Of a stretch of 64,000 nucleotides of DNA, positions 2,457 to 18,836 are shown piece after piece. Both the position numbers and the translations under genes were made by a program. The notes under the pieces were generated by a model that was not told the DNA's origin, made no database searches, and saw only the letters and a program-made list of their open reading frames with translations. Source of the stretch: Clostridia bacterium. GTDB lineage: Bacteria; Bacillota; Clostridia; Oscillospirales; UBA644. Within the stretch, counting starts at the first letter, position 1. The number at the start of each line of letters is the position of its first letter. The DNA lies in the NCBI GenBank assembly GCA_017621705.1, contig JAGASR010000036.1, forward strand, positions 6,837 through 70,836. Reading direction: 5' to 3'.

Positions 2457-3842
2457 TTATTTGGCAGACTCATTCTGCTGAACAAATTCTGCATTGGGAA
2501 TAACGTATTCTTCGATAAGATTATTTACGGCCTCGGAATATCTTGAAATGATCTCCGCAGAACCGACACCGCGCTTTACGGAGTCCTTTGCATTGGAGAA
2601 ATAATCGTAAATACCGACAATCCAATAATCCCAGCGAACGTTTTCAAGATATGTGGTAAAATATTCAACATCTCTTTTATCATAGAAAATAGTTGAAGCG
2701 TACTGCTCGATATCTTCTTTTGTTTCGTAGCCTTCAAACGGTTCAAACATTCTGTCTATGATCTTTGCCGCAGCCTCGGGATACTGCGCATTGATATAAA
2801 TACCCATGCAGTCAAAGGAATTCACCGCAGATCTCCATACGCCGTATGTTCCGCGAGGGCCGCACGGGAAAGGAACGATACCGTAATCTTCGCTGTCGTA
2901 AATGATCTCGTTTATCATATGAGTCAAAGAAGTGTTTGCAAGTACGATCTCATCGTTAATAAATCTTTCGACCATTTTATAGTGATCGTCAAAAGTTATA
3001 TAATCTGCTTTTTCGGTAAAAAGTTTTGCGCACCAGTCGAATGCTTCGGCAATATTCACGGAATCGAATGCGGGAGAGAAAGTTCCGTCGCTGTTTTTCT
3101 TGACGTAATCGGCGCCGTTCATCATTGCCATATCGAGGGTAAACGTCCATGTTGCATTCATCGCAGTAGCATTGACAGCACCGTCGTCGATCTGATAATC
3201 GGGAAGTATTTTTTCGAAATTTTCCCATGTCCACTCGCCGTTTTCAACGTAATCTCTGGGGTCAACTTTTCCGTAACGTTTTATGAGACCTTCGTTGACC
3301 GCAAAGATGTTATAGGAATACGATGCCTGTTTTCCGGGCCATGCAACGGGTGAAACGGTGTAAACAATGCCGTCTTTCATACCATGTTCAAGAAGACCGA
3401 GTGAACCGAATTTTTCGGAATTCGTATAATCAAGATGATCTTTTAAAATATCAAGAGGATAAAGAACTCCTGCTTTTACGAGATTATAAGGAGTTGTCGT
3501 GCAGGCAATTTCGCCGATATGTGTTCCTGCGGCGATAAACTGGATTGTACTGTCGAGATAGCCGCCGACAGTGACACAGTCGATAGAAATTTCGCAGTTC
3601 CAGTCTTCCGAAATTTCTTTAAGTCTTTTAAGATAAAGATCGGCAAGCAGAGTTCCCTCAGGATACTGGAACGGATGCGCCTCGTCAAACGATTGAACGA
3701 TCACGCATTCATACCCTTCAAGATCGACTTCTGTTGAGCCGAAATCGCTGTATTCGGGTAGAAGTTCAGCTTCTTCTTGCGCGCATGAGCAAATGGTAAA
3801 GCAAAAAGTCAGTAGCAGTAAAAACGATATTATCTTTTTCAT
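2457..3842 (-). CDS. lipoprotein, solute-binding-protein-like, paralog 1 of 7
   Basis: MKKIISFLLLLTFCFTICSCAQ lipoprotein signal (lipobox I-C-S-C). Family motifs present: YNIFAVNE, DPRDYVENGEWTWENFE, MMNGADY, PFPCGPRGTYG, NAQYPEAAA, DRMFEPFEGYET, RWDYW. The motif order resembles family-1 extracellular solute-binding proteins. RBS GAGGTG lies 5 nt upstream. Confidence 0.85.
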   Translation of the reverse strand: MKKIISFLLLLTFCFTICSCAQEEAELLPEYSDFGSTEVDLEGYECVIVQSFDEAHPFQYPEGTLLADLYLKRLKEISEDWNCEISIDCVTVGGYLDSTIQFIAAGTHIGEIACTTTPYNLVKAGVLYPLDILKDHLDYTNSEKFGSLGLLEHGMKDGIVYTVSPVAWPGKQASYSYNIFAVNEGLIKRYGKVDPRDYVENGEWTWENFEKILPDYQIDDGAVNATAMNATWTFTLDMAMMNGADYVKKNSDGTFSPAFDSVNIAEAFDWCAKLFTEKADYITFDDHYKMVERFINDEIVLANTSLTHMINEIIYDSEDYGIVPFPCGPRGTYGVWRSAVNSFDCMGIYINAQYPEAAAKIIDRMFEPFEGYETKEDIEQYASTIFYDKRDVEYFTTYLENVRWDYWIVGIYDYFSNAKDSVKRGVGSAEIISRYSEAVNNLIEEYVIPNAEFVQQNESAK

Positions 3843-3872
3843 TCTCGCACCTCATTTAGTATTTACATAAAA

Positions 3873-3901
3873 ATTATAACATATAAACATATTTATGTCA
3901 A
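3873..3901 (-). promoter_or_regulatory. sigmaA-type promoter of paralog 1
   Basis: On the minus strand, TTGACA (3896-3901), a 17-nt spacer, then TATAAT (3873-3878). Confidence 0.7.
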
Positions 3902-3920
3902 TAAAAGAACTGACGGCGAA

Positions 3921-3949
3921 AACAAAAGCCCGGAAAATACGGGCTTTTA
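3921..3949 (-). terminator. intrinsic terminator of paralog 2
   Basis: AAGCCCG-tattttc-CGGGCTT followed by TTTGTTTT on the minus strand. Confidence 0.75.
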
Positions 3950-3956: not shown

Positions 3957-5342
3957 TTAATTTTCAGAGTGTTCAGCTTCGTACTGTTTGATAAACTCGT
4001 AGTTGGGAATTACGTATTTTTCCACATAAATATTCGAAGCATCCGCATGTTTTGCTGCAATTTCAGTACCTGATTTATTGCTTTTTGTAAGAGTTGTTGC
4101 TGTCCTGAAATAGTCGAAAACACCAAATGTGTAGTAGTTCCAACGAGAGTATTTAAGGTATGTTGTAAATAACTCAACATCTCGTTTATCATAAAATATT
4201 CCGGAGGCATATTCTTGTATGTCTTCTATCGTTTCATATCCTTCAAAGGGTTCAAACATACGGTCGAGCACAGTTGCCGCTGCTTCCGGTTCTTTCGCGT
4301 TGACCCAAATAGCCATACTGTCAAATCCTGAATATGCATTCGGATATTCTCCGTATGTTCCGCTGGGTCCCCATGGCATTGAAACTACACCGTAGTTTTT
4401 CGCTTCAAATATCATTTCATTTATCATATGGGAAAAAGATGTTTGTGCAAGAGTCAATGTTCCGTTGTTGAAAGCATCTACCATTTCATAATGACCAAGA
4501 AATGAGATTATATCTTTATGCTTTGCAAATAAATCAGAGCACCAGTCGAAAGTTTCTGTAATTTCGGGAGAGTCAAGTGCGGGAACGACAGTCCCATCGG
4601 AATTTACTTTTATGTAATCCGCACCGTTCATCATTGCAAAGTCTATGATATACCAAGTAAGGTTCATAGCTGTGGCAGTAAATTCACCGTCTTCTATTTG
4701 ATAGTCTGGAAGAACATTCTCAAATGTTTCCCATGTCCATTCGCCGTTTTCGACATATTCTCTGGGGTCTGTTTTGCCGTAACGAGAAATGATATCTTCG
4801 TTAACAGCAAAAATATTATAGGAGTATGCCATTTGTTTACCCGGCCATGAAACAGGAGATACTGTATACGGAACTCCCATATACATTCCCTGTTCTAAAA
4901 GACCGGGTGTTCCGAATTTATCCGCATTTGTATAGTCAAGAAAATCAATGAGGACATCTAACGGATAATACATTCCGGAGGCTGCATTGCCGTGAGGACT
5001 GTGTGTGCACGATATTTCACCAACATATAATCCGGCAATAATTCTGGCTGTTTCTGTTCCGTTTGTTTTATGCAAAGTAACATTGCAGTTTAATTCTGTC
5101 GATATGTCTTTAAGTCTTTGTAAGTACATATCTGCCATGAGAGTTCCCACTGGGTATTGAAACGGACGTTCAAGATCGTATTCCTGAAGAATAGTACATT
5201 CATATCCGTCAAGATCTACTCCGGAATATTCTCCGTTCGGAGCACTGAAATCAAGCAAGAATTCTTCTTCGGTCTGCTGCGAACAGGAACAGAAGCTGAA
5301 AACAAGAAGAAACAGTACAACAAAAGATATTATCTTTTTCAT
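3957..5342 (-). CDS. lipoprotein, solute-binding-protein-like, paralog 2 of 7
   Basis: ORF 3957..5384. Start moved to MKKIISFVVLFLLVFSFCSCSQ (ATG 5340-5342), 7 nt after GAGGG. Same motif set (YNIFAVNE, DPREYVENGEWTWETFE, MMNGADY, NAKEPEAAA, DRMFEPFEGYET, RWNYY). Confidence 0.85.
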   Translation of the reverse strand: MKKIISFVVLFLLVFSFCSCSQQTEEEFLLDFSAPNGEYSGVDLDGYECTILQEYDLERPFQYPVGTLMADMYLQRLKDISTELNCNVTLHKTNGTETARIIAGLYVGEISCTHSPHGNAASGMYYPLDVLIDFLDYTNADKFGTPGLLEQGMYMGVPYTVSPVSWPGKQMAYSYNIFAVNEDIISRYGKTDPREYVENGEWTWETFENVLPDYQIEDGEFTATAMNLTWYIIDFAMMNGADYIKVNSDGTVVPALDSPEITETFDWCSDLFAKHKDIISFLGHYEMVDAFNNGTLTLAQTSFSHMINEMIFEAKNYGVVSMPWGPSGTYGEYPNAYSGFDSMAIWVNAKEPEAAATVLDRMFEPFEGYETIEDIQEYASGIFYDKRDVELFTTYLKYSRWNYYTFGVFDYFRTATTLTKSNKSGTEIAAKHADASNIYVEKYVIPNYEFIKQYEAEHSEN

Positions 5343-5421
5343 AAATTTACCCTCATTCTTTTTTTTAAAATTATAAATAAACATATTGGATTGTTAACGT
5401 AAGCAACAGATAAAAAAAACT

Positions 5422-6009
5422 TTATATTGAAAGGTCGCTTGTTTCATAGAAAGTATCGAATATTTTTTTGAAATCACCGTTATTTTCAAAAAGTATACCG
5501 TCGATACCCGCAAGCTTTGCGCCTTCGAGATTTGATCTGTTATCGTCGATCATAACAACGTCTTCCGCATTAAGACCGACATCAGATAAAACGTACTCGA
5601 AAAATTCTTTGCTCGGCTTTGAAATATGCATCAGGCTTGAGACAAATATTTTATCAAAGAGAGAATAAAGATCGTGTTTTTTAAGGATCCTCTCCAAAAA
5701 CGGATCAATAGCATTTGATAAAAGATATACAGGATATCTTTCTTTCACCTTACGGAGAAATGAAACGAGGTCTTCGTTTATTTCTACAAGGTCATCCCAT
5801 TCGGAACGGATCTGATCTGCGGGAATCCCCGTTCTCTCATAAATACGGCGGTAGGTTTCGTCTTCGTCTATGATCCCTATATCGCCCAAGGAAACAATAT
5901 CTTTTTTTATTTGGTCAGCTTCTTTATCATCAAAATGCCTTCTGAACCATATCGGTGCAATTTCGCAGGAAATTACGCCGAAAAAATCAAAGAAAACAGC
6001 TTTCTTCAT
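5422..6009 (-). CDS. HAD-superfamily hydrolase (subfamily IA-like)
   Basis: N-terminal FFDFFGVI motif I variant, LLSNA, and VMIDDNRSNLEGAKLAGIDGILF motif III/IV. Own TTGAAA-17-TATAAT promoter upstream (about 6040-6070, minus). Confidence 0.7.
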   Translation of the reverse strand: MKKAVFFDFFGVISCEIAPIWFRRHFDDKEADQIKKDIVSLGDIGIIDEDETYRRIYERTGIPADQIRSEWDDLVEINEDLVSFLRKVKERYPVYLLSNAIDPFLERILKKHDLYSLFDKIFVSSLMHISKPSKEFFEYVLSDVGLNAEDVVMIDDNRSNLEGAKLAGIDGILFENNGDFKKIFDTFYETSDLSI

Positions 6010-6105
6010 ATTAATCTCGCCTTATCCTTATAAAATTTATTATTATTCATTATAGCACAAAGCCATACAGATTTCAAGCATTTACGGATATTTTAAGTAA
6101 GACCT

Positions 6106-6135
6106 ATAAAAAACGGACCCTTTATCGGGTCCGTT
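6106..6135 (-). terminator. intrinsic terminator of paralog 3
   Basis: AACGGACCC-gataa-AGGGTCCGTT followed by TTTTT on the minus strand. Confidence 0.8.
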
Positions 6136-6140: not shown

Positions 6141-7517
6141 TTATTCATTAAAAGCTTTTTCGTATTGTAAAAAGAATTGATGATTCGGAATTATATATTC
6201 TTCAACCGATTGTTTTGCTTTTCCGAGATATTTTGAAAAGATCTCGGCAGAAGATCGACCTGATCCGGCATCCTCTGTTGCGGAATCAAAAAATTCGAGG
6301 AGATCGGCATTCGGTTCATAATTCCAACGGCTGTTTTTAAAGATCGAAAAGATGAGATCAATATCTCTGCTATCCGAAAAATATGTCCTGTAAAAATCTT
6401 TACGTAAATCCTCCGTCTCGTAATCTTCCCAGACATCGCAAAGGCGGTCAATAATTCTTGCCGATGCAACCGGTTTTTTCGCATTAACGAGAATTCCGAA
6501 GCATGTATTTTCGGAATAGGCGCTCACCCATTTGCCGTATTCACCATTCGGGCCGCAGGGCATGGGAACGATACCGATATTATCGGTATAGCCCATAAAC
6601 CGAATGACCTGATCTATGGAGGTCTGAGTCATAACGAGCTGATCGCCGAGGAATTTCGGAACCATTGTATCATGATCGTCAAAAGAAATGCAGCTTGAAT
6701 ATTGAGAAAAGACATCCGAGCACCAGTCGATAGTCTCGGTTATCTCAGGAGAATCGATTGCAGAGAAAGGTCTTCCTTCTCGAACGGTAACATAATCAGC
6801 GCCGTTCATCAACGCAAAATCGAGAATCGAATGGGTAATATTAACGGATTTTGCGCGGACAGAACCATCGTTGATAACATATTCCGGAAGAATACGTTCA
6901 AATGTATCCCATGTCCATTCGTGATTTTCAAGAAGATCACGGGGATCATCAAGACCGTAGCGTTTAACAAGATTTTCATTAACGGCAAAAATTCCATAAG
7001 AACCGATAGGTATTTGCTTGCCTGGCCATAAAGCGGGACTGACGGTATAAAGATTCCCGTCATATATGCCCTGTTCTAGAATTCCGTAAGCCCCGAATTT
7101 CTCGGAATTTGTATAGTCGATATAATCCTTCAGATCGTTAAGAGGGTGAAATGCGCCGACAGAAACAAGGTTTGACGATCCGATCATATATGCGATCTCG
7201 CAGACATAGCCGCCTGCCATAAGAGTCGGAAAGACAGAGCCGAGATTTTCGCTGCCGTCAATAACAATTTTTATGGAGCAATTCCAGTCGGCGGATATTT
7301 CGGCAATACGTGCTTTCATGATATCGGACTGCAGGTATCCAAAGCGTTCCTGCTCGGACTCGACGAGATCGGACTGCATAATGCTGAATTCATATCCGCC
7401 GAAATCCATAAGAGAATCGAGGCTTCCAGTCTCATAATCAATATCATTGTTCTGAGAACATGAGCATAAAATAAAAATGAATGCGGAAATCAAAACAAAA
7501 GAAATAATTTTTCTCAT
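6141..7517 (-). CDS. lipoprotein, solute-binding-protein-like, paralog 3 of 7
   Basis: ORF 6141..7565. Start is probably MRKIISFVLISAFIFILCSCSQ (ATG 7515-7517), or two codons earlier at 7523, after AAGGGG. Motifs FAVNENL, DPRDLLENHEWTWDTFE, LMNGADY, PMPCGPNGEYG, RWNY. Confidence 0.8.
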   Translation of the reverse strand: MRKIISFVLISAFIFILCSCSQNNDIDYETGSLDSLMDFGGYEFSIMQSDLVESEQERFGYLQSDIMKARIAEISADWNCSIKIVIDGSENLGSVFPTLMAGGYVCEIAYMIGSSNLVSVGAFHPLNDLKDYIDYTNSEKFGAYGILEQGIYDGNLYTVSPALWPGKQIPIGSYGIFAVNENLVKRYGLDDPRDLLENHEWTWDTFERILPEYVINDGSVRAKSVNITHSILDFALMNGADYVTVREGRPFSAIDSPEITETIDWCSDVFSQYSSCISFDDHDTMVPKFLGDQLVMTQTSIDQVIRFMGYTDNIGIVPMPCGPNGEYGKWVSAYSENTCFGILVNAKKPVASARIIDRLCDVWEDYETEDLRKDFYRTYFSDSRDIDLIFSIFKNSRWNYEPNADLLEFFDSATEDAGSGRSSAEIFSKYLGKAKQSVEEYIIPNHQFFLQYEKAFNE

Positions 7518-7536: not shown

Positions 7537-7565
7537 ATTATAACATACGCAAAAAATATTGTCAA
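7537..7565 (-). promoter_or_regulatory. sigmaA-type promoter of paralog 3
   Basis: Minus strand: TTGACA (7560-7565), 17 nt, TATAAT (7537-7542). It directly abuts the terminator of paralog 4. Confidence 0.7.
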
Positions 7566-7568: not shown

Positions 7569-7599
7569 AAAAACGGATCCTTATCGGGTCCGTTTTTTA
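7569..7599 (-). terminator. intrinsic terminator of paralog 4
   Basis: AACGGACCCGATAAGGATCCGTT hairpin followed by TTTTT. The stem sequence is nearly identical to the paralog 3 terminator. Confidence 0.75.
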
Positions 7600-7602: not shown

Positions 7603-9003
7603 TCAGTTATTTGTTTCTTTGAACTGTTTCATAAGCTCATAGTTGGGAACGACATATTCCTCAACTTTGCTGTTTGCGGCTTCTGCATATTTTTCAATAA
7701 TCTCGGTGCCGGATTTGCCGGACCTAGTCTGAGAAGTTGCGGTTGTAAAATAATCGTAAAGACCGAAATCTACGTAGTTCCAACGGCTGTTCTGATAGAT
7801 ATTCATGAGAAGATCGAGGTCACGTTTATCATAGAAGTAATCCGCCATATATTCCTTACGGTCTTCTTCTGTTTCGTATCCTTCAAACGGATCGAGCATA
7901 CGGTTGATTACCATAGCCGCAGCTTCGGGTTCTTTTGCATTGACGGTGATACCGAAGCTTACGTTTTCAGAATGAGCATTCACCCATTTACCGTAAGTTC
8001 CTTTGGGGCCGCAGGGCATGGGAACAATGCCATAGTTTGATACTTCATAGCTGAAAAATCTGATAACGTGGTCGATCGCGGTCTGTGCGAGGACGACCTC
8101 ATCGTTAAAGAACTGATTGAGCATTTGATCGTGTCCGTTGAAAGTTATACAGTCTTTATAAGTTGTAAAGATCTTTGAGCACCAGTCGAAAGTTTCGCGG
8201 ATTTCTTCGGAGTCAAGAGCGGCAGAAACGGTTCCGTCGCTGTTTTCTTTTACGTAATCGGCACCGTTCATCATCGCAAAGTCGAGAACAGACCAGGTAA
8301 TATTTGCGGCTTTAGTCTGAATGGATCCGTCGTCAATAGTGTATTCAGGAAGAATACGTTCGAAAGTATCCCAGGTCCATTCGCCGTTTTCGAGAAGATC
8401 ACGAGGATCGTCGAGAGCGAAACGGGAAACGAGATTTTCGTTGACGATAAATACGCTGAAAGAAGTTACCGTCTGTTTTCCGGGCCATGCTGCGGGAGTT
8501 ACGGCATACGGAATACCTTTATAAAGAGACTGTTCGAGAAGACCGATAGTACCGACTCTTGCGGCATCGGTATAATCGAGATATTCCTCAACAGCATCGA
8601 GACGGTGATAAAAACCTGCCTTGATAAAAGCGGTCGGACCGGAAGTGAAGATGATTTCACCTACATAGTCGCCGCTCATCATAAGAGGAGTTACGGTATC
8701 GAGACGGATTGTTCCGTCTGTTTTCAAAGTTACTTTGCAGTTAAAATCTTCTGATATCTCATTGATTCTTTCAAGAAGCATATCAGCCATGAGGGTATCG
8801 GTAGGATAAGTCAAAACGCTTGTTGCGCTTTCAGCCATATGGTTCTGCATGATGACACATTCGTAGCCGTCAAAGTCAATAACGGAAGAATCTCCACCAA
8901 GGCCCTTAAGGTCGAGGCTGAAACTTTCTTCCGAAGATTGGGCGCAGGAGCATATTCCGAAAACGAGGCAAATAAGTAAAAGTGCGGAAAATATTTTTTT
9001 CAA
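7603..9003 (-). CDS. lipoprotein, solute-binding-protein-like, paralog 4 of 7 (TTG start)
   Basis: MKKIFSALLLICLVFGICSCAQ. The start codon is TTG (9001-9003), 9 nt after GGGAGG. Family motifs FIVNENL, DPRDLLENGEWTWDTFE, MMNGADY, PMPCGPKGTYG, NAKEPEAAA, DPFEGYET, RWNY. Confidence 0.85.
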   Translation of the reverse strand: MKKIFSALLLICLVFGICSCAQSSEESFSLDLKGLGGDSSVIDFDGYECVIMQNHMAESATSVLTYPTDTLMADMLLERINEISEDFNCKVTLKTDGTIRLDTVTPLMMSGDYVGEIIFTSGPTAFIKAGFYHRLDAVEEYLDYTDAARVGTIGLLEQSLYKGIPYAVTPAAWPGKQTVTSFSVFIVNENLVSRFALDDPRDLLENGEWTWDTFERILPEYTIDDGSIQTKAANITWSVLDFAMMNGADYVKENSDGTVSAALDSEEIRETFDWCSKIFTTYKDCITFNGHDQMLNQFFNDEVVLAQTAIDHVIRFFSYEVSNYGIVPMPCGPKGTYGKWVNAHSENVSFGITVNAKEPEAAAMVINRMLDPFEGYETEEDRKEYMADYFYDKRDLDLLMNIYQNSRWNYVDFGLYDYFTTATSQTRSGKSGTEIIEKYAEAANSKVEEYVVPNYELMKQFKETNN

Positions 9004-9033: not shown

Positions 9034-9062
9034 ATTATAGCATAACAGAGAAGTCAAGTCAA
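9034..9062 (-). promoter_or_regulatory. sigmaA-type promoter of paralog 4
   Basis: Minus strand: TTGACT (9057-9062), 17 nt, TATAAT (9034-9039). Confidence 0.65.
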
Positions 9063-9094: not shown

Positions 9095-9127
9095 CAAAAA
9101 CCCCCGAATATTTATCAAATATCGGGG
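9095..9127 (-). terminator. intrinsic terminator of paralog 5
   Basis: CCCCGATATTT-gat-AAATATTCGGGG followed by a T-run on the minus strand. Confidence 0.75.
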
Positions 9128-9144: not shown

Positions 9145-10548
9145 TTAAGATTCGGGAGTTTCGAACTGCTTCATGAATTCGTAGTTGGGAACGACATATT
9201 CTTCGATTGCAAGATTTACTCTTTCTGCATTTTTCGAAAGAATTTCAGCAGAAGAGCGTCCTCTCGAGGTCTCACCCTTTGCGGAAGAGAAGAAATCGTA
9301 AATCGGAGCGCTGGGCCAATAGTTCCAACGGCTGTTTTCGAAATAGTTCATAACGAAATCAAGGTCTCTGTCATCAAAGAAATATTCGGAGAGGTAATCT
9401 TTAAGATCGCCTTTTGTTTCATAACCTTCAAAAGGATCGCAGAGACGGTCAATGATCATAGCCGCAGCTTCGGGCTGTTTTGCATTGACAAGGATACCGA
9501 AGCAGACATATTCTGCATAAGCGTTTGCCCATTCACCGTAAGTTCCGTTCGGACCGCAGGGCATGGGGACAACGCCGTAGTTATCCATATCGTAACTCAT
9601 AAATCTGATAATATGGTCAACAGCAGTCTGGGTTATAACGATCTCATCGTTAAGGAATTTGGGAAGCATACCCCAATGATCGTCAAACGAAATGCAGTCG
9701 GAGTGAGTTGTGAAGAGATCGGAACACCAGTCGAGAGTATCTGCAACGGCTTTGGAATCGATCGCGGGAAGAACAGTACCGTCTTCTTCGACTTTGATAT
9801 AGTCCATTCCGTTCATCATCGCAAAGTCGATAAGAGACCAGGAAATATTGAGTGCTTTTGCTTTGACGGAACCGTCGTCGATCTCATACTGGGGAATGAT
9901 CTCGCCGAAATTATCCCAGGTCCACTCGCCGTTTTCGACGTAATCTCTGGGGTCTGTCTTACCGTAGCGCATAACAAGATTTTCATTTACGGCAAAAACG
10001 CCGTATGAAGTTACCATCTGTTTACCCGGCCAGAGAACAGGGCTTACAGCATAGAGCTCACCGTTGAAAACGCCCTGCTCGATAATACCGGAAGAACCGT
10101 ATTTTTCGGAATTTGTATAGTCTATCTGATCTGTCATAACACTGAGGGGATAAAGCATACCGACAGAGGCAAAATTCATGGGGTTCGAAACGTAAATAAA
10201 TTCATGAGCATAGCTTCCGCTCGCAAGGATCGGAAGAAGAGAATTAAGTCTGTCAGAACCGTCGTTTTCAACTTTTATGGTGCAGTTCCAACCTTCCTCT
10301 ATCTCATCAAATCTTTCAAGGATCATATCTGCCATAAGAGTGCTGTCGGGATACGAAAAAAGACCGCCGTCGCCTTCAACAAGGTCTGCCTGCATGATTG
10401 AGCATTCGTAGCCGTCAAGATCGATCGTCGAAGAATCTCCGTTCATGCCGTTTAAATCAAGCAGGAATTCTTCTTCGGTCGTCTGAGCGCAGGAACAGAT
10501 GCCGAAAGCCATAACCGCAAGGAGAAGAAAAGCAATTATTTTTCTCAT
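9145..10548 (-). CDS. lipoprotein, solute-binding-protein-like, paralog 5 of 7
   Basis: MRKIIAFLLLAVMAFGICSCAQ. RBS GGAGG lies 6 nt upstream. Family motifs FAVNENL, DPRDYVENGEWTWDNF, MMNGMDY, PMPCGPNGTYG, NAKQPEAAA, DPFEGYET, RWNYW. Confidence 0.85.
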   Translation of the reverse strand: MRKIIAFLLLAVMAFGICSCAQTTEEEFLLDLNGMNGDSSTIDLDGYECSIMQADLVEGDGGLFSYPDSTLMADMILERFDEIEEGWNCTIKVENDGSDRLNSLLPILASGSYAHEFIYVSNPMNFASVGMLYPLSVMTDQIDYTNSEKYGSSGIIEQGVFNGELYAVSPVLWPGKQMVTSYGVFAVNENLVMRYGKTDPRDYVENGEWTWDNFGEIIPQYEIDDGSVKAKALNISWSLIDFAMMNGMDYIKVEEDGTVLPAIDSKAVADTLDWCSDLFTTHSDCISFDDHWGMLPKFLNDEIVITQTAVDHIIRFMSYDMDNYGVVPMPCGPNGTYGEWANAYAEYVCFGILVNAKQPEAAAMIIDRLCDPFEGYETKGDLKDYLSEYFFDDRDLDFVMNYFENSRWNYWPSAPIYDFFSSAKGETSRGRSSAEILSKNAERVNLAIEEYVVPNYEFMKQFETPES

Positions 10549-10651: not shown

Positions 10652-11611
10652 TTATCTTTCTTCTCTGAAATACGGAAGACCGAGACCTGCGGGGGGCTGA
10701 TTTTCACGTTTTTTGCTGACGCTCGTTACGATAAGAACGATGATGGTTACAACGTACGGAAGCATCTGAAGAAGCGGAGTTGCGCTTATATCAAGCTGGA
10801 TCTTGAGAAGAGTGGGAATACGGGAACCTGCAAGATAGAGCATACCGAAAAGAATGGAACCGACGATACTGATATGGGGTTTCCAGAGCGTAAAGATAAC
10901 GAGGGCAACGGCAAGCCAGCCGAGAGCTTCGATACTCTTATAAGCTTCGTAGGAACCTGCATAGTCCATGATATAGAAAAGACCGCCGAGAGCCGCGATA
11001 CCGCTGCCGATACAGGTTGCAACGTATTTATACATAGTTACGTTGATACCTACGGCGTCCGCAGTAGCAGGGTTTTCACCGACTGCACGAAGATGAAGAC
11101 CGACACGGGTACGGGTAAGAACGAACGATGCAACGAGCGCGATAATAAGAGCAAGGTAAACCATTACACCGTTGTATTTAAGAGAATTGGTGCTTTCAGC
11201 AAAGGGAAAACGGAAATAATCGAGAGCGTAAAGGTAGATTGTACCGCCGTTGCCAGCCATACCGTTCATGATGAACTTTGTGGTACCGACGCCGAAAGTT
11301 GTCATCGCAAGACCTGTAACATTCTGATTTGCTTTAAGGGTAACGGTAAGGAAGCTGTAAACAGCACCCATGAGAATACCGCCGATGAATGCGCAGAGGA
11401 TAGAGATTATTACTATAAGCGCAGGAGGGATATTTGTGCCGTTCATAAGTTTGAGAGCAAAACAGCCGCACGCGCCGCCGATACACATGATACCGGGGAT
11501 ACCGAGGTTAAGATGACCTGCTTTTTCGGTGAGGATTTCGCCCGTACAACCGTAAAGGAAAGTCATGCCGAGAGGAATGGAAGTAAGAATATAATCAAGG
11601 AACGGATTCAT
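10652..11611 (-). CDS. ABC transporter permease, BMP/nucleoside family (NupQ/YufQ-like)
   Basis: 319-aa polytopic membrane protein. ATGA-type junction with the upstream permease. Fourth gene in the order lipoprotein-ATPase-permease-permease, as in B. subtilis nupNOPQ. Confidence 0.85.
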   Translation of the reverse strand: MNPFLDYILTSIPLGMTFLYGCTGEILTEKAGHLNLGIPGIMCIGGACGCFALKLMNGTNIPPALIVIISILCAFIGGILMGAVYSFLTVTLKANQNVTGLAMTTFGVGTTKFIMNGMAGNGGTIYLYALDYFRFPFAESTNSLKYNGVMVYLALIIALVASFVLTRTRVGLHLRAVGENPATADAVGINVTMYKYVATCIGSGIAALGGLFYIMDYAGSYEAYKSIEALGWLAVALVIFTLWKPHISIVGSILFGMLYLAGSRIPTLLKIQLDISATPLLQMLPYVVTIIVLIVTSVSKKRENQPPAGLGLPYFREER

Positions 11612-12705
11612 TATTCTTTTTCTCCTTTCTTTTTCGATTCACGAAATTTAAGGCTGTAACTGATAAAGAATTCGCAGCCGATGATGAAGAAAAGAACGAT
11701 ACCGACAACGATATCGGGGAAAGCCGAGTCAATATTGAATCTGGTGGTGATCTGCGCGGAACCCTGCTGCATGAAGGTTATGAATGCGGAAGTTCCGATC
11801 ATGACGAGGGGATTGAATTTTGCAAGCCAGGAAACCATGATTGCGGTAAAGCCCATGCCGCCGACTGTCGTAGTCGTTACGGAATGGTCAAGAGCGCCTA
11901 CGATAAGGAAGCCCGCAAGACCGCAGATAGCGCCGGAAACGATCATAGTTCTGATGATAACTTTGCCGACACCGATACCGATGTAACGAGCGGTGTTTTC
12001 ACTTTCGCCGACAACGGATATCTCATAGCCCTGCTTTGTATAATGGAGATAAATATAAACTATTGCCGTAAGGACAAGAACCGCAACGATAAGAAGCAGA
12101 TATTCATGACCGATAACGGGAAGGTGACCTACGGAGAGAGCACCGAGAACGCTCGAGCCGCTGGGGGTCCAGAGGAGAAGGAAGTATGCGACGAGACCGG
12201 AAGCGACATAATTCATCATAAGGGTGAAAAGAGTTTCGTTGGTGTTCCATTTTGCCTTGAAGATAGCGGGAACACAGCCCCAGATCGCGCCTGCGAGAAT
12301 GGAAGCAACGAACATGAGGATAAGAAGAGGACCGTTGGGAACGTGATCTCCGAGATAGTACGCAACGCCTACAGAAGCAAGCGCACCGATAAGAGTCTGA
12401 CCCTCGGCGCCGATATTCCAGAAGCGCATACGGAATGCGGGAGTTACGGCAAGTGCGATACAAAGAAGGATGGAAGCGTCTTTTGCGAATTTCCAGAGAC
12501 GACGAGAGGAACCGAGTACACCGTCGATCATAGTTTCGATAAACTCAAAGGGATTTGCGTTTATCATGAATACGGAAAGAACGGAGCAAAGAAGAAGGGC
12601 TGCGACAACTGCAACGATACGGATGGTCATCGATTTCCAGAACGGCATCGTATCGCGTTTGACGACGTGGAAGGGAAGTTCATGAGTTTTTTCACGCATT
12701 TTCAT
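11611..12705 (-). CDS. ABC transporter permease, BMP/nucleoside family (NupP/YufP-like)
   Basis: 364-aa polytopic membrane protein. 14-nt overlap with the ATPase gene. Confidence 0.85.
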   Translation of the reverse strand: MKMREKTHELPFHVVKRDTMPFWKSMTIRIVAVVAALLLCSVLSVFMINANPFEFIETMIDGVLGSSRRLWKFAKDASILLCIALAVTPAFRMRFWNIGAEGQTLIGALASVGVAYYLGDHVPNGPLLILMFVASILAGAIWGCVPAIFKAKWNTNETLFTLMMNYVASGLVAYFLLLWTPSGSSVLGALSVGHLPVIGHEYLLLIVAVLVLTAIVYIYLHYTKQGYEISVVGESENTARYIGIGVGKVIIRTMIVSGAICGLAGFLIVGALDHSVTTTTVGGMGFTAIMVSWLAKFNPLVMIGTSAFITFMQQGSAQITTRFNIDSAFPDIVVGIVLFFIIGCEFFISYSLKFRESKKKGEKE

Positions 12706-14260
12706 TGTCGGTTACCTCCTTTTTTTCGGTTTCGGCGGAAGTTTCGGTCTTTGTCATGAGAAGACCGATCTCTTCTTTGGTGGTATTTCTGCCATCGAGA
12801 ATACCCGTAATACGACCTGCGCAGACTACGAGAATACGGTCGCAGAGTTCAACGAGAACGTCAAGGTCCTCGCCGACGAAGATAACGGAAACACCTTTTT
12901 CTTTCTGTTCGGTAAGAAGATCGTAAATGGTATAGGACGAGTTGATATCAAGGCCTCGGACGGGATAAGCCGCCATAAGAACAGTCGGAGAAGCGGCGAT
13001 CTCACGGCCTACGAGGACTTTCTGAACGTTACCGCCGGAAAGACGGCGAACGGGAGTTTTTGTGCTGGGAGTTGCGACTTCGAGCTCTTCAACGATCTTT
13101 TTCGCAAGGTCGCCGGGTTTTTTACGGTCAACGAATATAGAATGACCTTTGCGGTAGCTTCGAAGCATCATATTATCGACAATATCCATATTGCCGACAA
13201 GGCCCATGCCGAGACGGTCTTCGGGAACGAACGACAGTCTGACACCGAGTTCTCTGATCGCTACGGGATCTTTATCTCGGAGGTCTTCGCTCTCCCCTGT
13301 TTTCGGGTTGTGGTAAATGATCTTACCGGTTACAGGGTGGCAAAGGCCTGCGATAGATTCAAGAAGCTCTCTCTGACCGCTGCCTGCGATACCCGCAATA
13401 CCGAGAATCTCGCCTGCACGAGCGGTAAAAGAAATATTATCGAGAACCTTGATACCTTCGGCATCGACCATGTTAAGGCCCTGAACTTCGAGTCTGTCAC
13501 ATGTATTTTTAGGTTCGGGACGCTTGATATTAAGTTCAACTTTTTTGCCGACCATCATTTCGGTAAGCGCGGAAGCGGTCGTTGTTGCAGTGTCGACAGT
13601 AGCAATGTGTTCACCTTTACGGAGAACGGCTACACGGTCGGAAATAGAAAGAACTTCGTGGAGTTTATGGGTGATGATAAGGATAGATTTTCCGTCTTCA
13701 CGCATACGGCGAAGAACGTCGAAAAGCTTGTCAGTCTCCTGCGGAGTAAGAACTGCGGACGGCTCGTCAAGGATGAGGATATCAGCACCTCTGTAAAGAA
13801 CCTTGAGGATCTCGACGGTCTGCTTTTCGGAAACAGACATTTCGTATATCTTCTTTTTGGGGTCAACGTTAAAACCGTATTTATCTGCAAGTTCCTGAAC
13901 TTTACGGTTTACTTCCTTGATATTGTAACGCTGACCGTTTTTAACACCGAGAACGATATTTTCGGCAGCAGTAAAAAGATCTACCAGTTTGAAATGCTGA
14001 TGGATCATGCCTATTCCGTGACGGAAAGCATCTTTGGGTGAACGGATCACAACTTCCTGACCGTCGACAGAAATCGAGCCGCTGTCAGGATAATAAATGC
14101 CGGCAATCATATTCATAAGGGTCGTCTTACCGCATCCGTTTTCGCCGAGGATCGCAAGGATCTCGCCGCGGTAAACGGTCAGATCGACATTTTTATTTGC
14201 CGCCAGACTGCCAAAATATTTGGAAACGTTTTTCAGTTCCAAAGCAACAGGTTTACTCAT
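12692..14260 (-). CDS. ABC transporter ATP-binding protein with duplicated ATPase domains (NupO/RnsB-like)
   Basis: Walker A GENGCGKTT, signature VSEKQ and LSGGNVQK, Walker B ILILDEP. 522 aa, typical of CUT2/BMP-type double-domain ATPases. RBS GGAGGAAAG. Confidence 0.9.
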   Translation of the reverse strand: MSKPVALELKNVSKYFGSLAANKNVDLTVYRGEILAILGENGCGKTTLMNMIAGIYYPDSGSISVDGQEVVIRSPKDAFRHGIGMIHQHFKLVDLFTAAENIVLGVKNGQRYNIKEVNRKVQELADKYGFNVDPKKKIYEMSVSEKQTVEILKVLYRGADILILDEPSAVLTPQETDKLFDVLRRMREDGKSILIITHKLHEVLSISDRVAVLRKGEHIATVDTATTTASALTEMMVGKKVELNIKRPEPKNTCDRLEVQGLNMVDAEGIKVLDNISFTARAGEILGIAGIAGSGQRELLESIAGLCHPVTGKIIYHNPKTGESEDLRDKDPVAIRELGVRLSFVPEDRLGMGLVGNMDIVDNMMLRSYRKGHSIFVDRKKPGDLAKKIVEELEVATPSTKTPVRRLSGGNVQKVLVGREIAASPTVLMAAYPVRGLDINSSYTIYDLLTEQKEKGVSVIFVGEDLDVLVELCDRILVVCAGRITGILDGRNTTKEEIGLLMTKTETSAETEKKEVTDNENA

Positions 14261-14357
14261 TAACTTTCCTCCAAAAAGAAAAATGTCATTTACAAGCCTT
14301 CAGTAAGCCGTTCGACAAAAAAACTACAGTCAAAACGGTTTGCTCGAGGTTTGTTAA

Positions 14358-14389
14358 AACCGAAAACAAGCGGAGCTTTTTGGCTCCGC
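14358..14389 (-). terminator. intra-operon hairpin / partial terminator after the binding-protein gene
   Basis: GCGGAGC-caaaaa-GCTCCGC followed by TTGTTTTCGGTTTT on the minus strand. No convincing promoter between it and the ATPase gene. Confidence 0.55.
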
Positions 14390-14410
14390 CTGTCTTCTGC
14401 GGTATATCTA

Positions 14411-15616
14411 TCAACCGAAATTGGTGTTAAGAAGGGTAATACCGTCGATCTGAATGTCAAAATAAGGAGCAGCGCGGTATTCGGATTCGTGGAAGTAACC
14501 GTCAGCGATAACTTCGGTATCCTTGGTGTAAGCAGCGTCGGTATCAACGTCAGCCATGTAAGAGGTGAGATTTTCGCCGAGAACGGTGAAGGTGGAAACA
14601 TCAAATACTTTAACTTCACCGGAGATGAGTTTTTCTCTGATCTCGTCGATCTTAGCCTGAGTACCTTCAGCAGCAGCGGTGGTGTTGACATCGGTAAGAG
14701 CTACAGAGCCGGTGGAAAGGGTACCGGTCCAGTCAACAGCGATTTCGGTGCCGTTCTGAACGCTTTCGCAGATGTATACGAAATAAGGAGTCCAGTCGAT
14801 CTTGGAAGAAACGATGAAGGTGTTGGGGCAGGAAGCGAGGGTACTACCGTTATAGGATACGTTGGGAACGTTCTTTTCTTCGCAAACGGAAGGAGCGCCC
14901 ATAGAGTCAGCATGCTGGCTGATAAGAACGCAACCGTTGTTGATAAGAGCGGTAGCAGCGTCTTTTTCTTTGATTTCGTCGTACCAGCTGCCGGTGAACT
15001 GAACTTCCATAGTAACTTCGGGGCAAACATATTTAGCGCCGAGGTAGAAAGAGGTGTAACCGGAGATAACTTCAGCGAAGGTGAAAGCGCCTACGTAACC
15101 CATTTTAGCCTGGTCAGCAGTGATGGTGCCGTCAGCGATCATTTCGTTGAGTTTCATACCAGCTGCAACGCCTGCGAGGAATCTGCCTTCGTAGATGGAA
15201 GCAAAAGCGTTGTGGAAGTTGGAGAGTTTTTCAGTGTGAGCCATAGTACCGGTAGCATGGCAGAACTGAACATCGGTAAATTCTTTAGCAGCTTTGAGAA
15301 GATAAGTTTCGTGACCGAAGCTGTCTGCGAAGATAATATCGCAACCTTCGTCTACGAGGTCTGCTGCTGCTTCGTAGCATTCGTTGGACTCGGGGATATT
15401 TTTCTTGAAGATAACCTGTTCTTCAGAAAGGCCGAGTTCAGCAGCTGCGCGGTTAACTGCTTCGATGAAGTTAAGGTCATAGGTGGAAGCCTCGTCGTGA
15501 AGAAGAATTACACCAAGCTTAAAATCATCTTCGGACTGGTCGCAGGAAGCCATGGAAACGCAAAGAGCGAGAACCATAACAACTGCAACGCACATGGATA
15601 AGATTTTCTTGAACAT
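14411..15616 (-). CDS. BMP-family (PnrA/TmpC/NupN-like) nucleoside-binding lipoprotein
   Basis: MFKKILSMCVAVVMVLALCVSMASCDQ lipoprotein signal. A 401-aa BMP-like sequence heads the ABC operon. Confidence 0.85.
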   Translation of the reverse strand: MFKKILSMCVAVVMVLALCVSMASCDQSEDDFKLGVILLHDEASTYDLNFIEAVNRAAAELGLSEEQVIFKKNIPESNECYEAAADLVDEGCDIIFADSFGHETYLLKAAKEFTDVQFCHATGTMAHTEKLSNFHNAFASIYEGRFLAGVAAGMKLNEMIADGTITADQAKMGYVGAFTFAEVISGYTSFYLGAKYVCPEVTMEVQFTGSWYDEIKEKDAATALINNGCVLISQHADSMGAPSVCEEKNVPNVSYNGSTLASCPNTFIVSSKIDWTPYFVYICESVQNGTEIAVDWTGTLSTGSVALTDVNTTAAAEGTQAKIDEIREKLISGEVKVFDVSTFTVLGENLTSYMADVDTDAAYTKDTEVIADGYFHESEYRAAPYFDIQIDGITLLNTNFG

Positions 15617-15726: not shown

Positions 15727-15755
15727 ATTGTATAATAAAACTCGAATTTTGTCAA
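15727..15755 (-). promoter_or_regulatory. sigmaA-type promoter of the BMP ABC operon
   Basis: Minus strand: TTGACA (15750-15755), 17 nt, TACAAT (15727-15732). It leaves a ~110-nt leader. Confidence 0.6.
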
Positions 15756-15860: not shown

Positions 15861-17261
15861 TTATTTGGTTCCGGTATACTCTTCGTATTCTTTGATAAAT
15901 TGGTAGTTGGGAACGACATATTCTTCAACGAGAGCATTTGCGGCATCAGCATATCTGTCAAAAATTTCTATAGATGAAGCACCTTTAATAGCCTCATTTT
16001 TGGCCGTATCGAAAAACGAATAAATACCAAGAGTCCAATAATTCCAACGGATATTTTTGAGATAAGAGGTAAAAAAGTCGACATCACGCTTATCAAAGAA
16101 AATATCGGAGGCATAATTTTTAATATCTTCGAGAGTTTCGTATCCCTCGAACGGATCGCACATACGATCTACCACCATTGCGGCGGCTTCGGGCTCTTTG
16201 GCATTGACAAAGACAGCGAAAGAGTCAAAATCCGAGAATACGGAGGGCCAGGTTCCGTATTCTCCGCGCGGGCCGCAGGGCATGGGAACAACGCCGAAAT
16301 TATCCATATCATAAGAAATATCGGCAATAACATTAGAAAAGGAAGTCTGCGTCATAACAAGTTCGCCTGCAAGAAAAACAGGAAGCATCTCATAATGACC
16401 GAGCGTTGTAATACAATCCGAATTGTTTTTGTAAAGACGACCGAACCAATCGATCGATTCACCGATAGCTGGAGAATCAAGAGATGGAAAGGCTGTTCCA
16501 TCTTCATTTACGGAAATAAAACTTGCCCCGTTAGTCATACAGAGCTCTACGATAGACCATGTAAAGTTTACGGCAGTAGCTTTAAATTCACCGTCTTCTA
16601 TCTGATAGTCGGAAATTACGTTTTCGAAAGTATCGTATGTCCATTCACCGTTTTCAACGTAATCACGGGGATCGACTTTTCCGTAACGGGAAATAAGATC
16701 TTCATTGACGGCAAAAATATTATACGAATAACTCATCTGTTTACCTGGCCATGAAACAGGGGCTACGGTATACGGAACACCGTTCATCATACCGATTTCA
16801 AGAAGGCCGAGGCTGCCGAATTTATCAGCATTCATATAATCGATATAATCCCTTAAAGCGTCAAGAGGATAGAAACAACCGGCACGGACAACTCTTGAAG
16901 GCTGATGAGTATAGCCGATTTCTGCGACATGTGTCCCACCTAATATTTTTGCAATAGTACCGTCAAGATAACTGCCGGTCGCATCCGAGCTAAGAGTAAT
17001 ATTGCAATTCATTTCTTTGCCAATATTTGCCATTCGCTGAAGGACCATATCCGACATAAGAGTATCGAGAGGATAAAAGAACGGAGTATCCATACCGAAG
17101 CCCTGAACTATTTCACATTCGTATCCGTCGAGGTCAATTTTTGAAGAATCGGAATTTATTCCGTTAAGATCAAGCAAAAATTCTTCATTCTGAGAACCGG
17201 CACATGAGCAGATGCCGAAAATAAAAACAAAAAGAAGAACACATGAAATAATCTTTTTCAT
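15861..17261 (-). CDS. lipoprotein, solute-binding-protein-like, paralog 6 of 7
   Basis: MKKIISCVLLFVFIFGICSCAG. Family motifs YNIFAVNE, DPRDYVENGEWTYDTFE, PMPCGPRGEYG, NAKEPEAAA, DPFEGYET, RWNYW. No obvious Shine-Dalgarno sequence before the only in-frame ATG. Confidence 0.8.
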   Translation of the reverse strand: MKKIISCVLLFVFIFGICSCAGSQNEEFLLDLNGINSDSSKIDLDGYECEIVQGFGMDTPFFYPLDTLMSDMVLQRMANIGKEMNCNITLSSDATGSYLDGTIAKILGGTHVAEIGYTHQPSRVVRAGCFYPLDALRDYIDYMNADKFGSLGLLEIGMMNGVPYTVAPVSWPGKQMSYSYNIFAVNEDLISRYGKVDPRDYVENGEWTYDTFENVISDYQIEDGEFKATAVNFTWSIVELCMTNGASFISVNEDGTAFPSLDSPAIGESIDWFGRLYKNNSDCITTLGHYEMLPVFLAGELVMTQTSFSNVIADISYDMDNFGVVPMPCGPRGEYGTWPSVFSDFDSFAVFVNAKEPEAAAMVVDRMCDPFEGYETLEDIKNYASDIFFDKRDVDFFTSYLKNIRWNYWTLGIYSFFDTAKNEAIKGASSIEIFDRYADAANALVEEYVVPNYQFIKEYEEYTGTK

Positions 17262-17438
17262 AATAATAAACCATAGCTTTCATTTGGGAATTAGGGCTGA
17301 TTTAAAACCTGCGTGAAAAAGTGTTTTTCACGCTACCCCCAAAGGTTTCATTTTACATATTATAGCATAAATCGAAATACAATGCAATATATAAAAATCT
17401 TATCCCGAGATCAAAAAACCTCTGGATACACACTTATA

Positions 17439-18836
17439 TCAATTATTATCTACGTACTCTTCGTATTCTTTGATAAATTCGTAGTTGGGAACGACGTATT
17501 CTTCAACGAGAGCGCTTGCGGCTTCCGCGTATTTCTCAATAATTTCTGCGGAAGAAGCGCCTTTGATGGCCTCGGACTTGGCGTTGCCAAAATAATCAAA
17601 GATGCCGACTGTCCAGTAGTTCCAGCGTACATCACGAAGATAAGTGGTGAAGAATTCAACGTCACGCTTATCATAGAAGAAGCCCGAAGCATACTGCTGA
17701 ATATCGTCGAGAGTTTCGTATCCTTCAAACGGGTCGCACATGCGGTCGATTACCATTGCGGCGCCCTCAGGTTCTTTTGCGTTGATATAGATACCGAAAG
17801 AGTCAAAGTCGGAAAAGAGGCTGGGCCATTCGCCGTACGTTCCGCGAGGACCGCAGGGCATGGGAACGATGCCGTAGTTACCCATTTCGTAAACGATATC
17901 ACCCATCATATGGGAAAAAGAGGTCTGTGCCATAACGATCTCGCCTGCAAGGAAGCCAGATGTCATTTCGTTATAACCGAGAGTTGTGATACAGTCAGAA
18001 TGATTTGCGTAAAGACGGGAGAACCAGTCGAAAGTCTCTGCAATAGCAGCAGAATTAAGCGCAGGGACAGCACGTCCGTCATCGGTAACGGAAATAAGGC
18101 TTGCGCCGTTCATCATAGCGAGTTCTGCAAGAGACCATGTGAAGTTGACTGCGGTAGCTTCAAAGTCGCCGTCTTCGATCTGGTAATCGGGAATAACTTT
18201 TTCGAAATTATCCCAGGTCCATTCGCCGTTTTCGACATAGTCACGGGGGTCAACTTTACCGTAACGAGCAATAAGATCTTCGTTGACAGAGAAGATATTA
18301 TAAGCATAAGACATCTGCTTACCGGGCCAAGCGACGGGAGCTACGGTATAGGGAACACCGTTCATCATACCGATCTCAAGAAGACCGAGACTGCCGAATT
18401 TATCGGCATTCATATAGTCGAGAAAATCTCTTAAAATATCGAGAGGATAAAGAACGCTTGCCTGAACGAGCTTTGAGGGCTGATGAGTATAACCGATCTC
18501 TGCGACATGAACACCGCCGTAAACCTTTGTGATGGTGCCTTCAAGATAGCTGTTCGGCTCGGCGATAAGAGTAACGGTGCAGTTCAGTTCTTTGCCTATA
18601 TCGGACATTCTTTTGAGCACGAAGTCTGACATAAGCGTATCGAGAGGATAGCAGAACGGCTGTTCAAGGTCAAAGCTCTGAATGATCGCACACTCGTAGC
18701 CGTTAAGGTCGACTGTATCGCCATCGTAAAGATCGTCGATATCCATATCGAAAAATTCGGGCTGTTCGGTCTGCGCACAGGAACAGATTCCAAAGACCAT
18801 GACAAAGAGAAGCAAACAGGAAATTATTTTTTTCAT
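17439..18836 (-). CDS. lipoprotein, solute-binding-protein-like, paralog 7 of 7
   Basis: ORF 17439..18914. Start moved to MKKIISCLLLFVMVFGICSCAQ (ATG 18834-18836), 10 nt after AGGAG. By eye it is most similar to paralog 6. Confidence 0.85.
   Translation of the reverse strand: MKKIISCLLLFVMVFGICSCAQTEQPEFFDMDIDDLYDGDTVDLNGYECAIIQSFDLEQPFCYPLDTLMSDFVLKRMSDIGKELNCTVTLIAEPNSYLEGTITKVYGGVHVAEIGYTHQPSKLVQASVLYPLDILRDFLDYMNADKFGSLGLLEIGMMNGVPYTVAPVAWPGKQMSYAYNIFSVNEDLIARYGKVDPRDYVENGEWTWDNFEKVIPDYQIEDGDFEATAVNFTWSLAELAMMNGASLISVTDDGRAVPALNSAAIAETFDWFSRLYANHSDCITTLGYNEMTSGFLAGEIVMAQTSFSHMMGDIVYEMGNYGIVPMPCGPRGTYGEWPSLFSDFDSFGIYINAKEPEGAAMVIDRMCDPFEGYETLDDIQQYASGFFYDKRDVEFFTTYLRDVRWNYWTVGIFDYFGNAKSEAIKGASSAEIIEKYAEAASALVEEYVVPNYEFIKEYEEYVDNN

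Follow-up and report, generated by a model that had tools for sequence, protein, structure and literature searches.

A Seven-Gene Array of Predicted Solute-Binding Lipoproteins Without Linked MalF/MalG-Type Permease Genes in a Ruminant-Gut Clostridia Bacterium

Solute-binding proteins (SBPs) set the uptake of ATP-binding cassette (ABC) importers, and their genes are normally read together with adjacent permease genes. The stretch of DNA studied here, hereafter the window, comprises 64,000 nucleotides of a Clostridia bacterium (Oscillospirales, UBA644; GenBank assembly GCA_017621705.1, contig JAGASR010000036.1, positions 6,837 to 70,836) and comes from a ruminant gastrointestinal metagenome scaffold. 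Between positions 2457 and 18836 it carries seven paralogous genes for SBP-like lipoproteins, which an original prediction, made from the sequence by a model, had picked out as orphan binding proteins; the locus thus raises the question of what such proteins do when they are encoded in number and apart from MalF/MalG-type (MalFG-type) permeases. Our results indicate that the array is a single locus within an expansion that spans a clade, and we give about an even chance to the view that its proteins are specialised receptors for oligosaccharides and have one or a few unlinked MalFG-type translocators in common.

Family membership and predicted fold

The seven genes of the array are the following (aa, amino acids; HMM, hidden Markov model):

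2457-3842, minus strand: copy 1, lipoprotein of predicted SBP fold, 461 aa; family HMM 810 bits; SBP_bac_1 18.9 bits, below cut-off
3957-5342, minus strand: copy 2, 461 aa; no Pfam SBP match
6141-7517, minus strand: copy 3, 458 aa, the most divergent; SBP_bac_1 28.4 bits, just over cut-off
7603-9003, minus strand: copy 4, 466 aa, TTG start; no Pfam SBP match
9145-10548, minus strand: copy 5, 467 aa; Pfam SBP score below cut-off
15861-17261, minus strand: copy 6, 466 aa; SBP_bac_8 40.2 bits; the copy used for structure prediction
17439-18836, minus strand: copy 7, 465 aa; SBP_bac_8 34.5 bits; 71% identical to copy 6

A check of the open reading frames (ORFs) and a full-length alignment both bear out the original description of seven minus-strand genes of nearly equal length (458-467 aa) at these coordinates. 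Pairwise identity, measured end to end, ranges from 41 to 71% with a mean of 52%, and copies 6 and 7, which had been judged closest by eye, stand at the top of that range. When the six-frame translation of the window was searched with an HMM built from the seven copies, all seven came back at E 1e-225 to 1e-258 and no eighth copy was found, so the resemblance is not due to chance. Every copy begins with M[KR]KI, followed by a hydrophobic run and a lipobox of the form (I/V/M)(C/S)(S)C, whose cysteine (Cys20) is invariant in 46 of 46 family members, in agreement with the lipoprotein signals attributed to all copies. The motif blocks described as shared are likewise found in each copy, although not letter-perfect: copy 3 reads DFGGYEF and DVWEDYET, copy 2 has PWGP, and the last residue of RWNYW varies.

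Standard annotation mostly misses this family, and as a consequence many of its members are filed as hypothetical proteins. Taking a score at or above the gathering cut-off as a Pfam match, three of the seven window copies (3, 6 and 7) pass for an SBP family, copies 1 and 5 fall short of the cut-off, and neither copy 2 nor copy 4 has a match; at E<=0.01, SBP_bac_8 (PF13416) matches 13 and SBP_bac_1 (PF01547) matches 4 of 46 family members, 17 in total. NCBIfam holds no family for any of the seven copies, and with most members lacking a Pfam match, the suggestion that the family may be uncharacterised is upheld. Two other families were considered: Bmp (PF02608) matches none of the seven copies, while it does match the gene at 14411-15616, which belongs to an importer operon embedded in the array, and DUF576, the family of the Staphylococcus aureus tandem lipoproteins, gave no Pfam match at E<=1 among the seven.

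In a sequence profile search of the PDB, the sole informative match was the arabino-oligosaccharide binder AbnE (E 9e-6). A structure of copy 6 was predicted with AlphaFold (AF2) from a 46-sequence alignment, giving a model with a predicted local distance difference test (pLDDT) score of 90.4 and a predicted template modelling (pTM) score of 0.84. The model displays the two alpha/beta lobes and hinge, as well as the likeness to solved proteins, that mark the cluster D (MalE-like) type-II fold, together with a low-confidence tether (residues 19-39) and a long additional C-terminal helix (430-464). Foldseek comparison with the PDB yielded 807 matches at E<=0.001, the top ones with TM-scores of 0.5-0.7; the top 50 matches listed are almost all MalE-type binding proteins or maltose-binding protein (MBP) fusion constructs, with examples such as 1eu8, 7c6z, 6dtq, 6rjy and 5ysf at E about 1e-14 and 12-16% identity. 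The ligand classes represented include trehalose/maltose, beta-glycoside, maltose, arabino-oligosaccharide and sophoro-oligosaccharide binders, as well as UgpB and UspC. The clear predicted structure and the MalE-type matches support the original SBP-like reading, and the predicted fold goes against the fold-based refutation named for it; on the strength of the model, the family is supported as a divergent branch of the cluster-D, CUT1-type SBP class.

Transcription units, paralogue divergence and distribution

Judged from sequence, each copy is its own transcription unit with a predicted near-consensus sigma-70 promoter, and hairpin plus T-run terminators lie 3' of copies 1-6. The promoters and the terminators of copies 1-5 are located as follows:

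3873-3901, minus strand: predicted promoter of copy 1; TTGACA, 17-nt spacer, TG-TATAAT; 12/12
5370-5397, minus strand: predicted promoter of copy 2; 11/12
7537-7565, minus strand: predicted promoter of copy 3; 12/12, extended -10
9034-9062, minus strand: predicted promoter of copy 4; 11/12, extended -10
10579-10607, minus strand: predicted promoter of copy 5; 12/12, extended -10
17359-17387, minus strand: predicted promoter of copy 6; TTGCAT, 17-nt spacer, TG-TATAAT
18865-18893, minus strand: predicted promoter of copy 7; TTGCGG, 17-nt spacer, TG-TATAAT
2414-2436, minus strand: terminator hairpin of copy 1
3924-3948, minus strand: terminator hairpin of copy 2
6112-6135, minus strand: terminator hairpin of copy 3
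7569-7592, minus strand: hairpin and T-run of copy 4, read from the sequence
9096-9127, minus strand: hairpin and T-run of copy 5, read from the sequence

Perfect or nearly perfect TTGACA-17-TGnTATAAT promoters are placed 30-60 nt upstream of copies 1-5, and all three 12/12 matches in the 19.5 kb scanned precede genes of the family; in copies 6 and 7 an extended -10 is combined with weaker -35 boxes. The copies are apparently expressed individually and strongly. The one-gene-one-promoter layout also recurs in an eight-copy array of a distant subfamily in another genome (L007). No sugar-responsive regulator gene was found in or beside the window array, and Rfam recognised no RNA element anywhere in the window.

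Copy 6 alone is preceded by a leader of ~90 nt (17262-17387, minus strand), which contains a perfect 10-bp hairpin (GCGTGAAAAA-CAC-TTTTTCACGC) and a 9-codon upstream ORF starting GTG AAA AAC behind a GGGGG Shine-Dalgarno site. This upstream ORF has the look of a remnant of an earlier MKN... start, and the present ATG has no clear Shine-Dalgarno site before it.

The age of the copies can be judged from a syntenic array in another species, SIG516 (L010), in which the flanking GH18 (glycoside hydrolase family 18) and AP_endonuc_2 genes are included. Copies 2-7 have 1:1 orthologues there at 65-82% identity, as against 41-71% between paralogues, and copy 1, which lacks a 1:1 counterpart in that array, is an additional, old duplicate within the copy-2 lineage. 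The following orthologues are given with their positions and, where available, the ratio of non-synonymous to synonymous substitution rates (dN/dS):

L010 13011-14405: orthologue of copy 2, 69% identity
L010 11457-12893: orthologue of copy 3, 65% identity
L010 8449-9876: orthologue of copy 4, 71% identity
L010 9986-11407: orthologue of copy 5, 79% identity, dN/dS 0.09
L010 5283-6683: orthologue of copy 7, 82% identity, dN/dS 0.06

Where computable, dN/dS lies at 0.06-0.12, synonymous sites being saturated both between orthologues and between paralogues, and DNA identity between copies does not exceed about 79% over stretches of 60-300 nt, with no long identical tracts. Taken together, these values show that the copies are old, individually under purifying selection and not homogenised by gene conversion, and they speak against antigenic variation.

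Positions that differ between paralogues and are fixed within orthologue groups cluster at 53-60, 91-108, 115-126, 304-316 and 406-412 (copy 6 numbering), just after the C-terminal ends of beta-strands in the model. Cleft-lining loops of the type-II SBP fold lie after such strand ends, and the paralogue-specific residues are accordingly expected, from the model, to stand in loops lining the binding cleft. These regions presumably correspond to those around MalE D14/K15, W62-R66, W230 and W340, a match that is approximate, since the hhalign alignment to MalE (probability 0.4%, hinge strand misplaced) gives rough anchoring only. Conversely, DPRDY.ENG.W, G(I/V)VP.P.GP, EPFEGYET and F.D.RD are near-invariant even between subfamilies of 25-30% identity, which suggests a common partner or a common ligand moiety. 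The proposal that the diversified copies represent an expansion of substrate range fits the conservation of orthologues, the purifying selection and the variability of the predicted cleft loops.

A word-indexed protein search returned 41 relatives, all from metagenome-assembled genomes (MAGs) of Clostridia, Ruminococcaceae or Oscillospiraceae, and an exhaustive profile search of 1.84 billion cluster representatives gave 279 clusters at E<=1e-30. Among species-representative genomes, the family is concentrated in about seven Clostridia species of the ruminant gut, all known as MAGs only (SIG516, Tb.RUG.167, Tb.RUG.171, RUG12846, RGIG2778, MAG48 and SRR10912533_bin.8). Counting just the fetched loci, each of these genomes has at least 16-21 full-length copies, of which up to eight stand in a tandem run. 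In single assemblies some copies are split by frameshifts or stops (L002 93-1548 and 7005-8449; L019 9941-11380) and are intact in sister assemblies; these split copies could be assembly errors, or else real pseudogenes or switching.

Unlinked transporters and the function of the family

Transporter linkage was assessed with a MalF/MalG-type permease HMM built from six outgroup loci, two of whose seeds Pfam confirms as BPD_transp_1; as a positive control, E. coli MalG scored 76.6 bits. Loci were read within 10 kb of a matched family gene, which amounts to ~170 kb per genome (~5-10% of each genome, on assumed sizes), and the clade sample comprised 0.90 Mb of species-representative loci and 0.26 Mb of extra metagenome loci (~1.16 Mb), with ~183 family genes. 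MalFG-type permeases lie within 10 kb in six of six outgroup loci, those of the nearest relatives outside the clade, and the permease EAA-loop regular expression matches outgroup permeases only. HMM and motif searches agree with the original statement that the window contains no MalF/MalG permeases, and the linkage typical of CUT1 systems (TC 3.A.1.1), an SBP gene with two BPD_transp_1 permease genes, is absent from the family in the sampled loci. The ABC ATPases of the sampled DNA are all ECF, BMP or MacB-like. The term orphan holds in the sense of not gene-linked only, and in that sense it extends from the window to 10 kb around ~183 relatives; a complete ABC importer of another class, embedded between copies 5 and 6, had been overlooked, as had a gene for a HAD-family hydrolase. 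These are encoded as follows:

10652-15616, minus strand: complete BMP/PnrA-type ABC importer (Pfam BPD_transp_2 twice, ABC_tran, Bmp)
10652-11611 and 11611-12705, minus strand: its permeases (BPD_transp_2)
12692-14260, minus strand: its ATPase, with a double nucleotide-binding domain
14411-15616, minus strand: its Bmp lipoprotein
15727-15755, minus strand: its own promoter
5422-6009, minus strand: gene of a HAD-family hydrolase, situated between copies 2 and 3; separate promoter at 6049-6077

According to the model of specialised receptors with shared translocators, each gene would be transcribed alone from its near-consensus sigma-70 promoter, and the product would be exported, lipidated at Cys20 and held to the membrane by a flexible tether of ~20 residues. 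Each paralogue would bind a different carbohydrate in the cleft between the lobes, the loaded proteins would dock on MalFG-type translocators, one or a few in number, that serve many SBPs and have their genes elsewhere in the genome, and the imported sugars would be degraded by intracellular enzymes encoded beside the SBP genes (GH18, GH36/melibiase, DUF4838, fucose isomerase and others). The neighbours of family genes are indeed mainly carbohydrate enzymes, namely GH18 and a xylose-isomerase-like TIM barrel (window, L010, L134), GH36/melibiase and DUF4838, in addition to L-fucose isomerase, class II aldolase and sugar acetyltransferase. No signal peptide is present in the three of three enzymes examined (the GH18 and melibiase of the window and the DUF4838 protein of L070); the main argument that the receptors feed a transporter is that the substrates of such intracellular glycosidases must be imported. 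In L070 (8146-11404), 25 nt separate the end of a DUF4838 gene from the family gene that follows it, and the pair may form a two-gene operon linking an intracellular glycosidase-like enzyme with a surface receptor; at L007 1-2208, too, DUF4838 is encoded directly before a family gene. As for the many receptors that the model calls for, at least 16-21 paralogues are found per genome, and no translocator in the sampled DNA.

Several points weigh against this model. Across the window and the ~1.16 Mb of clade loci around the ~183 family genes, the permease HMM gave 0 matches even at E<=10, and a search for MalK/MsmK-type ATPases found none either. With about ten randomly placed CUT1 systems per genome and assumed genome sizes of 2-3 Mb, several should have been caught in 170 kb of each of seven genomes, so that finding none suggests that the clade has few or no CUT1 systems. 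To our knowledge, known many-to-one systems keep at least one SBP gene beside permease genes, and no such hub locus occurs in the sampled clade loci; at least 20 receptors per translocator would, moreover, be unprecedented. Promoters so close to consensus, with no LacI/AraC-type regulator nearby, are unlike those of typical substrate-induced sugar-uptake operons. Finally, the sugar ligands, the specificities of the paralogues and the shared translocator with its docking are elements that we infer.

These points bear on a broader alternative, which we consider unlikely though deserving of serious weight, namely that the MalE fold has been recruited, in at least 20 genes per genome, for a job without a MalFG-type translocator, either as a SusD-like coat in Gram-positive bacteria or in the service of a translocator of another class, such as BPD_transp_2; if true, this would be a new way of using SBPs. 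The first version, in which CUT1 translocators have been lost or are unused for these proteins, which would instead coat the cell, hold soluble or polymer-bound glycans, or anchor the cell to plant fibre, mucus or microbes, is the main rival of the receptor model, one that we doubt without dismissing it. It would account for the absence of CUT1 permeases and ATPases in about 1.2 Mb around ~183 family genes, and for a strong, apparently unregulated predicted promoter on every copy. No conserved membrane partner lies nearby: when all ORFs of 61 clade loci and the window were clustered, no partner family appeared in more than 2-3 loci of one genome, and the membrane proteins near the arrays are Na/H exchangers, Rce1-like, MFS_1, TrkH, DUF1538 and MatE proteins, with no sugar transporter among them. 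Further, the family-specific C-terminal helix and the invariant polar motifs are atypical of transport SBPs, and some family-1 SBPs of Bifidobacterium longum subsp. infantis adhere to epithelial cells (PMC3057974). However, binding alone leaves the pairing with intracellular glycosidases and sugar-catabolic enzymes unexplained, the closed-cleft fold is better suited to free oligosaccharides than to polymers, and with ~5-10% of each genome sampled, a distant translocator is possible.

Delivery to the embedded BMP/BPD_transp_2-type importer, that is, a cross-class pairing of a cluster-D SBP with a CUT2/BMP-type translocator, would make sense of the position of that operon between copies 5 and 6, of a second, independent BPD_transp_2 importer, which an L-fucose isomerase/DUF4838 locus (L070, L074, L075) carries at a distance of 4.5 kb from a family gene, and of the fact that BPD_transp_2 systems are the only importers with sugar-uptake potential in the sampled DNA. 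The embedded operon nevertheless comes with a Bmp binding protein and a promoter of its own, is absent from the orthologous SIG516 array (L010) and is probably not the partner of the lipoprotein family; we know of no pairing across these classes. BPD_transp_2 was likewise rejected as a general partner, because such a transporter occurs in only two independent contexts (the window and the L070-type fucose locus) of about 87; we regard this delivery as very unlikely. Highly improbable, too, is a variable surface coat against phage or host antibody, or a set of decoy receptors: the many paralogues with strong independent predicted promoters and the interrupted copies in single assemblies (L002, L019) would suit it, but the 1:1 orthologues are conserved across species at dN/dS of about 0.1 or less, gene-conversion tracts are lacking, the upstream regions contain no invertible promoter elements or slippage-prone repeats that could be seen, and within each orthologue group the variable positions do not change. 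The MalE-type fold does serve sensing in other bacteria, and one two-component pair is encoded in the window (55436-57349); for the copies to be ligand sensors acting through a membrane kinase or chemoreceptor, in the style of MalE-Tar or of three-component systems, is nonetheless highly improbable as well, since that pair and the array are 37 kb apart, none of the genomes shows a kinase or chemoreceptor family that recurs near arrays, and at least 20 sensors without partners are implausible. The sensor option raised in the original prediction thus finds no support.

Neighbouring genes and comparison with known systems

Two carbohydrate-related genes flank the array and are conserved neighbours of it:

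1329-2345, plus strand: GH18 glycoside hydrolase (Pfam 190 bits), without signal peptide
431-1240, minus strand: xylose-isomerase-like TIM-barrel protein (AP_endonuc_2), conserved by synteny

The GH18 gene takes the same position beside arrays in L010, L011 and L134. Families recurring among the neighbours include MatE, URO-D, HAD, hexapeptide acetyltransferase, ABC ATPase and class II aldolase. URO-D genes were encountered near several arrays (window 61688-62752, minus strand; L004, L007, L010, L042 and L134), and the clade seems to carry many genes of this family. Directly adjoining the window array (19006-20407, plus strand) are genes for a VTC-domain protein and a DUF4956 membrane protein, a pair that we take to be polyphosphate-related.

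Farther along the window, a homologue of apolipoprotein N-acyltransferase (Lnt; LNT_N and CN_hydrolase; 30339-31814, minus strand) lies beside a MacB/FtsX-type ABC set (25859-30095, plus strand) made up of an ATPase, a 733-aa protein without Pfam match and an FtsX/MacB_PCD permease. Lnt is unusual in Clostridia and could matter in a lineage making at least 20 abundant lipoproteins. The gene of the 733-aa protein (26468-28669, plus strand) and another large ORF (22388-24547, plus strand, 719 aa) are both without Pfam match. At 47500-49671, two ORFs overlap on opposite strands (693 aa, minus; 646 aa, plus), the plus-strand one having no Pfam match. Tandem class I Glu/Gln-type tRNA synthetase genes (32671-35983 and 36007-38382, plus strand) are followed by two tandem 393-aa GFO/IDH/MocA oxidoreductase paralogues, and a 732-aa protein (59423-61621, plus strand) consists of seven DUF4379 treble-clef zinc-finger repeats.

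With respect to current knowledge, neither the fold nor the general notion that binding proteins can be unlinked is new, and the literature on comparable orphan sugar-binding-protein arrays yielded general precedents only. New are a Pfam-marginal family without a characterised member, its strict one-gene-one-promoter layout, and, clade-wide among the sampled loci of these uncultured rumen and hindgut bacteria, some 20 receptors per genome (at least 16-21) uncoupled from any permease gene. If one or two translocators were common to all of them, this would be the most extreme many-to-one arrangement described; it would offer a natural setting in which to study the acceptance of many receptors by a single transporter, and would suggest that these bacteria live in the rumen by cross-feeding and by scavenging oligosaccharides. 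Should such a translocator be missing from the genomes, the fold would have gained a transport-independent role at the surface. Either way, the paralogues offer a ready panel of diverged modules with predicted glycan binding.

Compared with CUT1 SBPs such as MalE, the TMBP of T. litoralis (1eu8), the beta-glycoside binder of Thermus (7c6z) and AbnE (6rjy), the family shares the predicted two-lobe type-II fold, the Gram-positive lipoprotein anchor and the order of motifs, from an N-E-D-L strand through TW(D/E)xF and GxxPxP to a PEAA helix. It differs in being 12-16% identical to any solved structure, with most members below Pfam detection, in a length greater by 40-50 residues, in its long C-terminal helix and the invariant motifs EPFEGYET and F.D.RD, and in that every copy is, by its predicted signals, monocistronic and never gene-linked to MalFG-type permeases.

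Among systems with many receptors, three of the five OppA genes of Borrelia burgdorferi adjoin permease genes. That bacterium, in which five OppA proteins serve one Opp translocator (PMC5736914), provides the many-to-one precedent, with several diverged paralogous binding lipoproteins, some of them encoded away from permease genes under separate promoters; unlike these five peptide-binding receptors of cluster C, the present family is sugar-type, counts at least 16-21 members per genome and has no hub locus found. B. longum subsp. infantis, a gut specialist with 20 family-1 SBP genes of differing glycan specificities, some of them adhesive (PMC3057974), shows a similar lineage-specific excess of sugar-binding lipoproteins, about 20 in number; its proteins, however, are standard SBP_bac_1 members by Pfam and have been described as components of ABC importers, whereas Pfam barely recognises the present family, whose genes are uncoupled from those of permeases.

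Two further likenesses do not extend to the fold. The tandem paralogous lipoprotein genes resemble the Lpl (DUF576) clusters of S. aureus, which are virulence-linked arrays, although Lpl proteins belong to an unrelated fold and family and are tied to virulence rather than to nutrients. SusD-like proteins have an all-helical TPR-like fold, are always paired with a SusC TonB-dependent transporter gene and occur in outer-membrane bacteria (Bacteroidota); they differ from our family in all three respects and resemble it, by analogy, as many paralogous lipoproteins for glycan capture at the cell surface.

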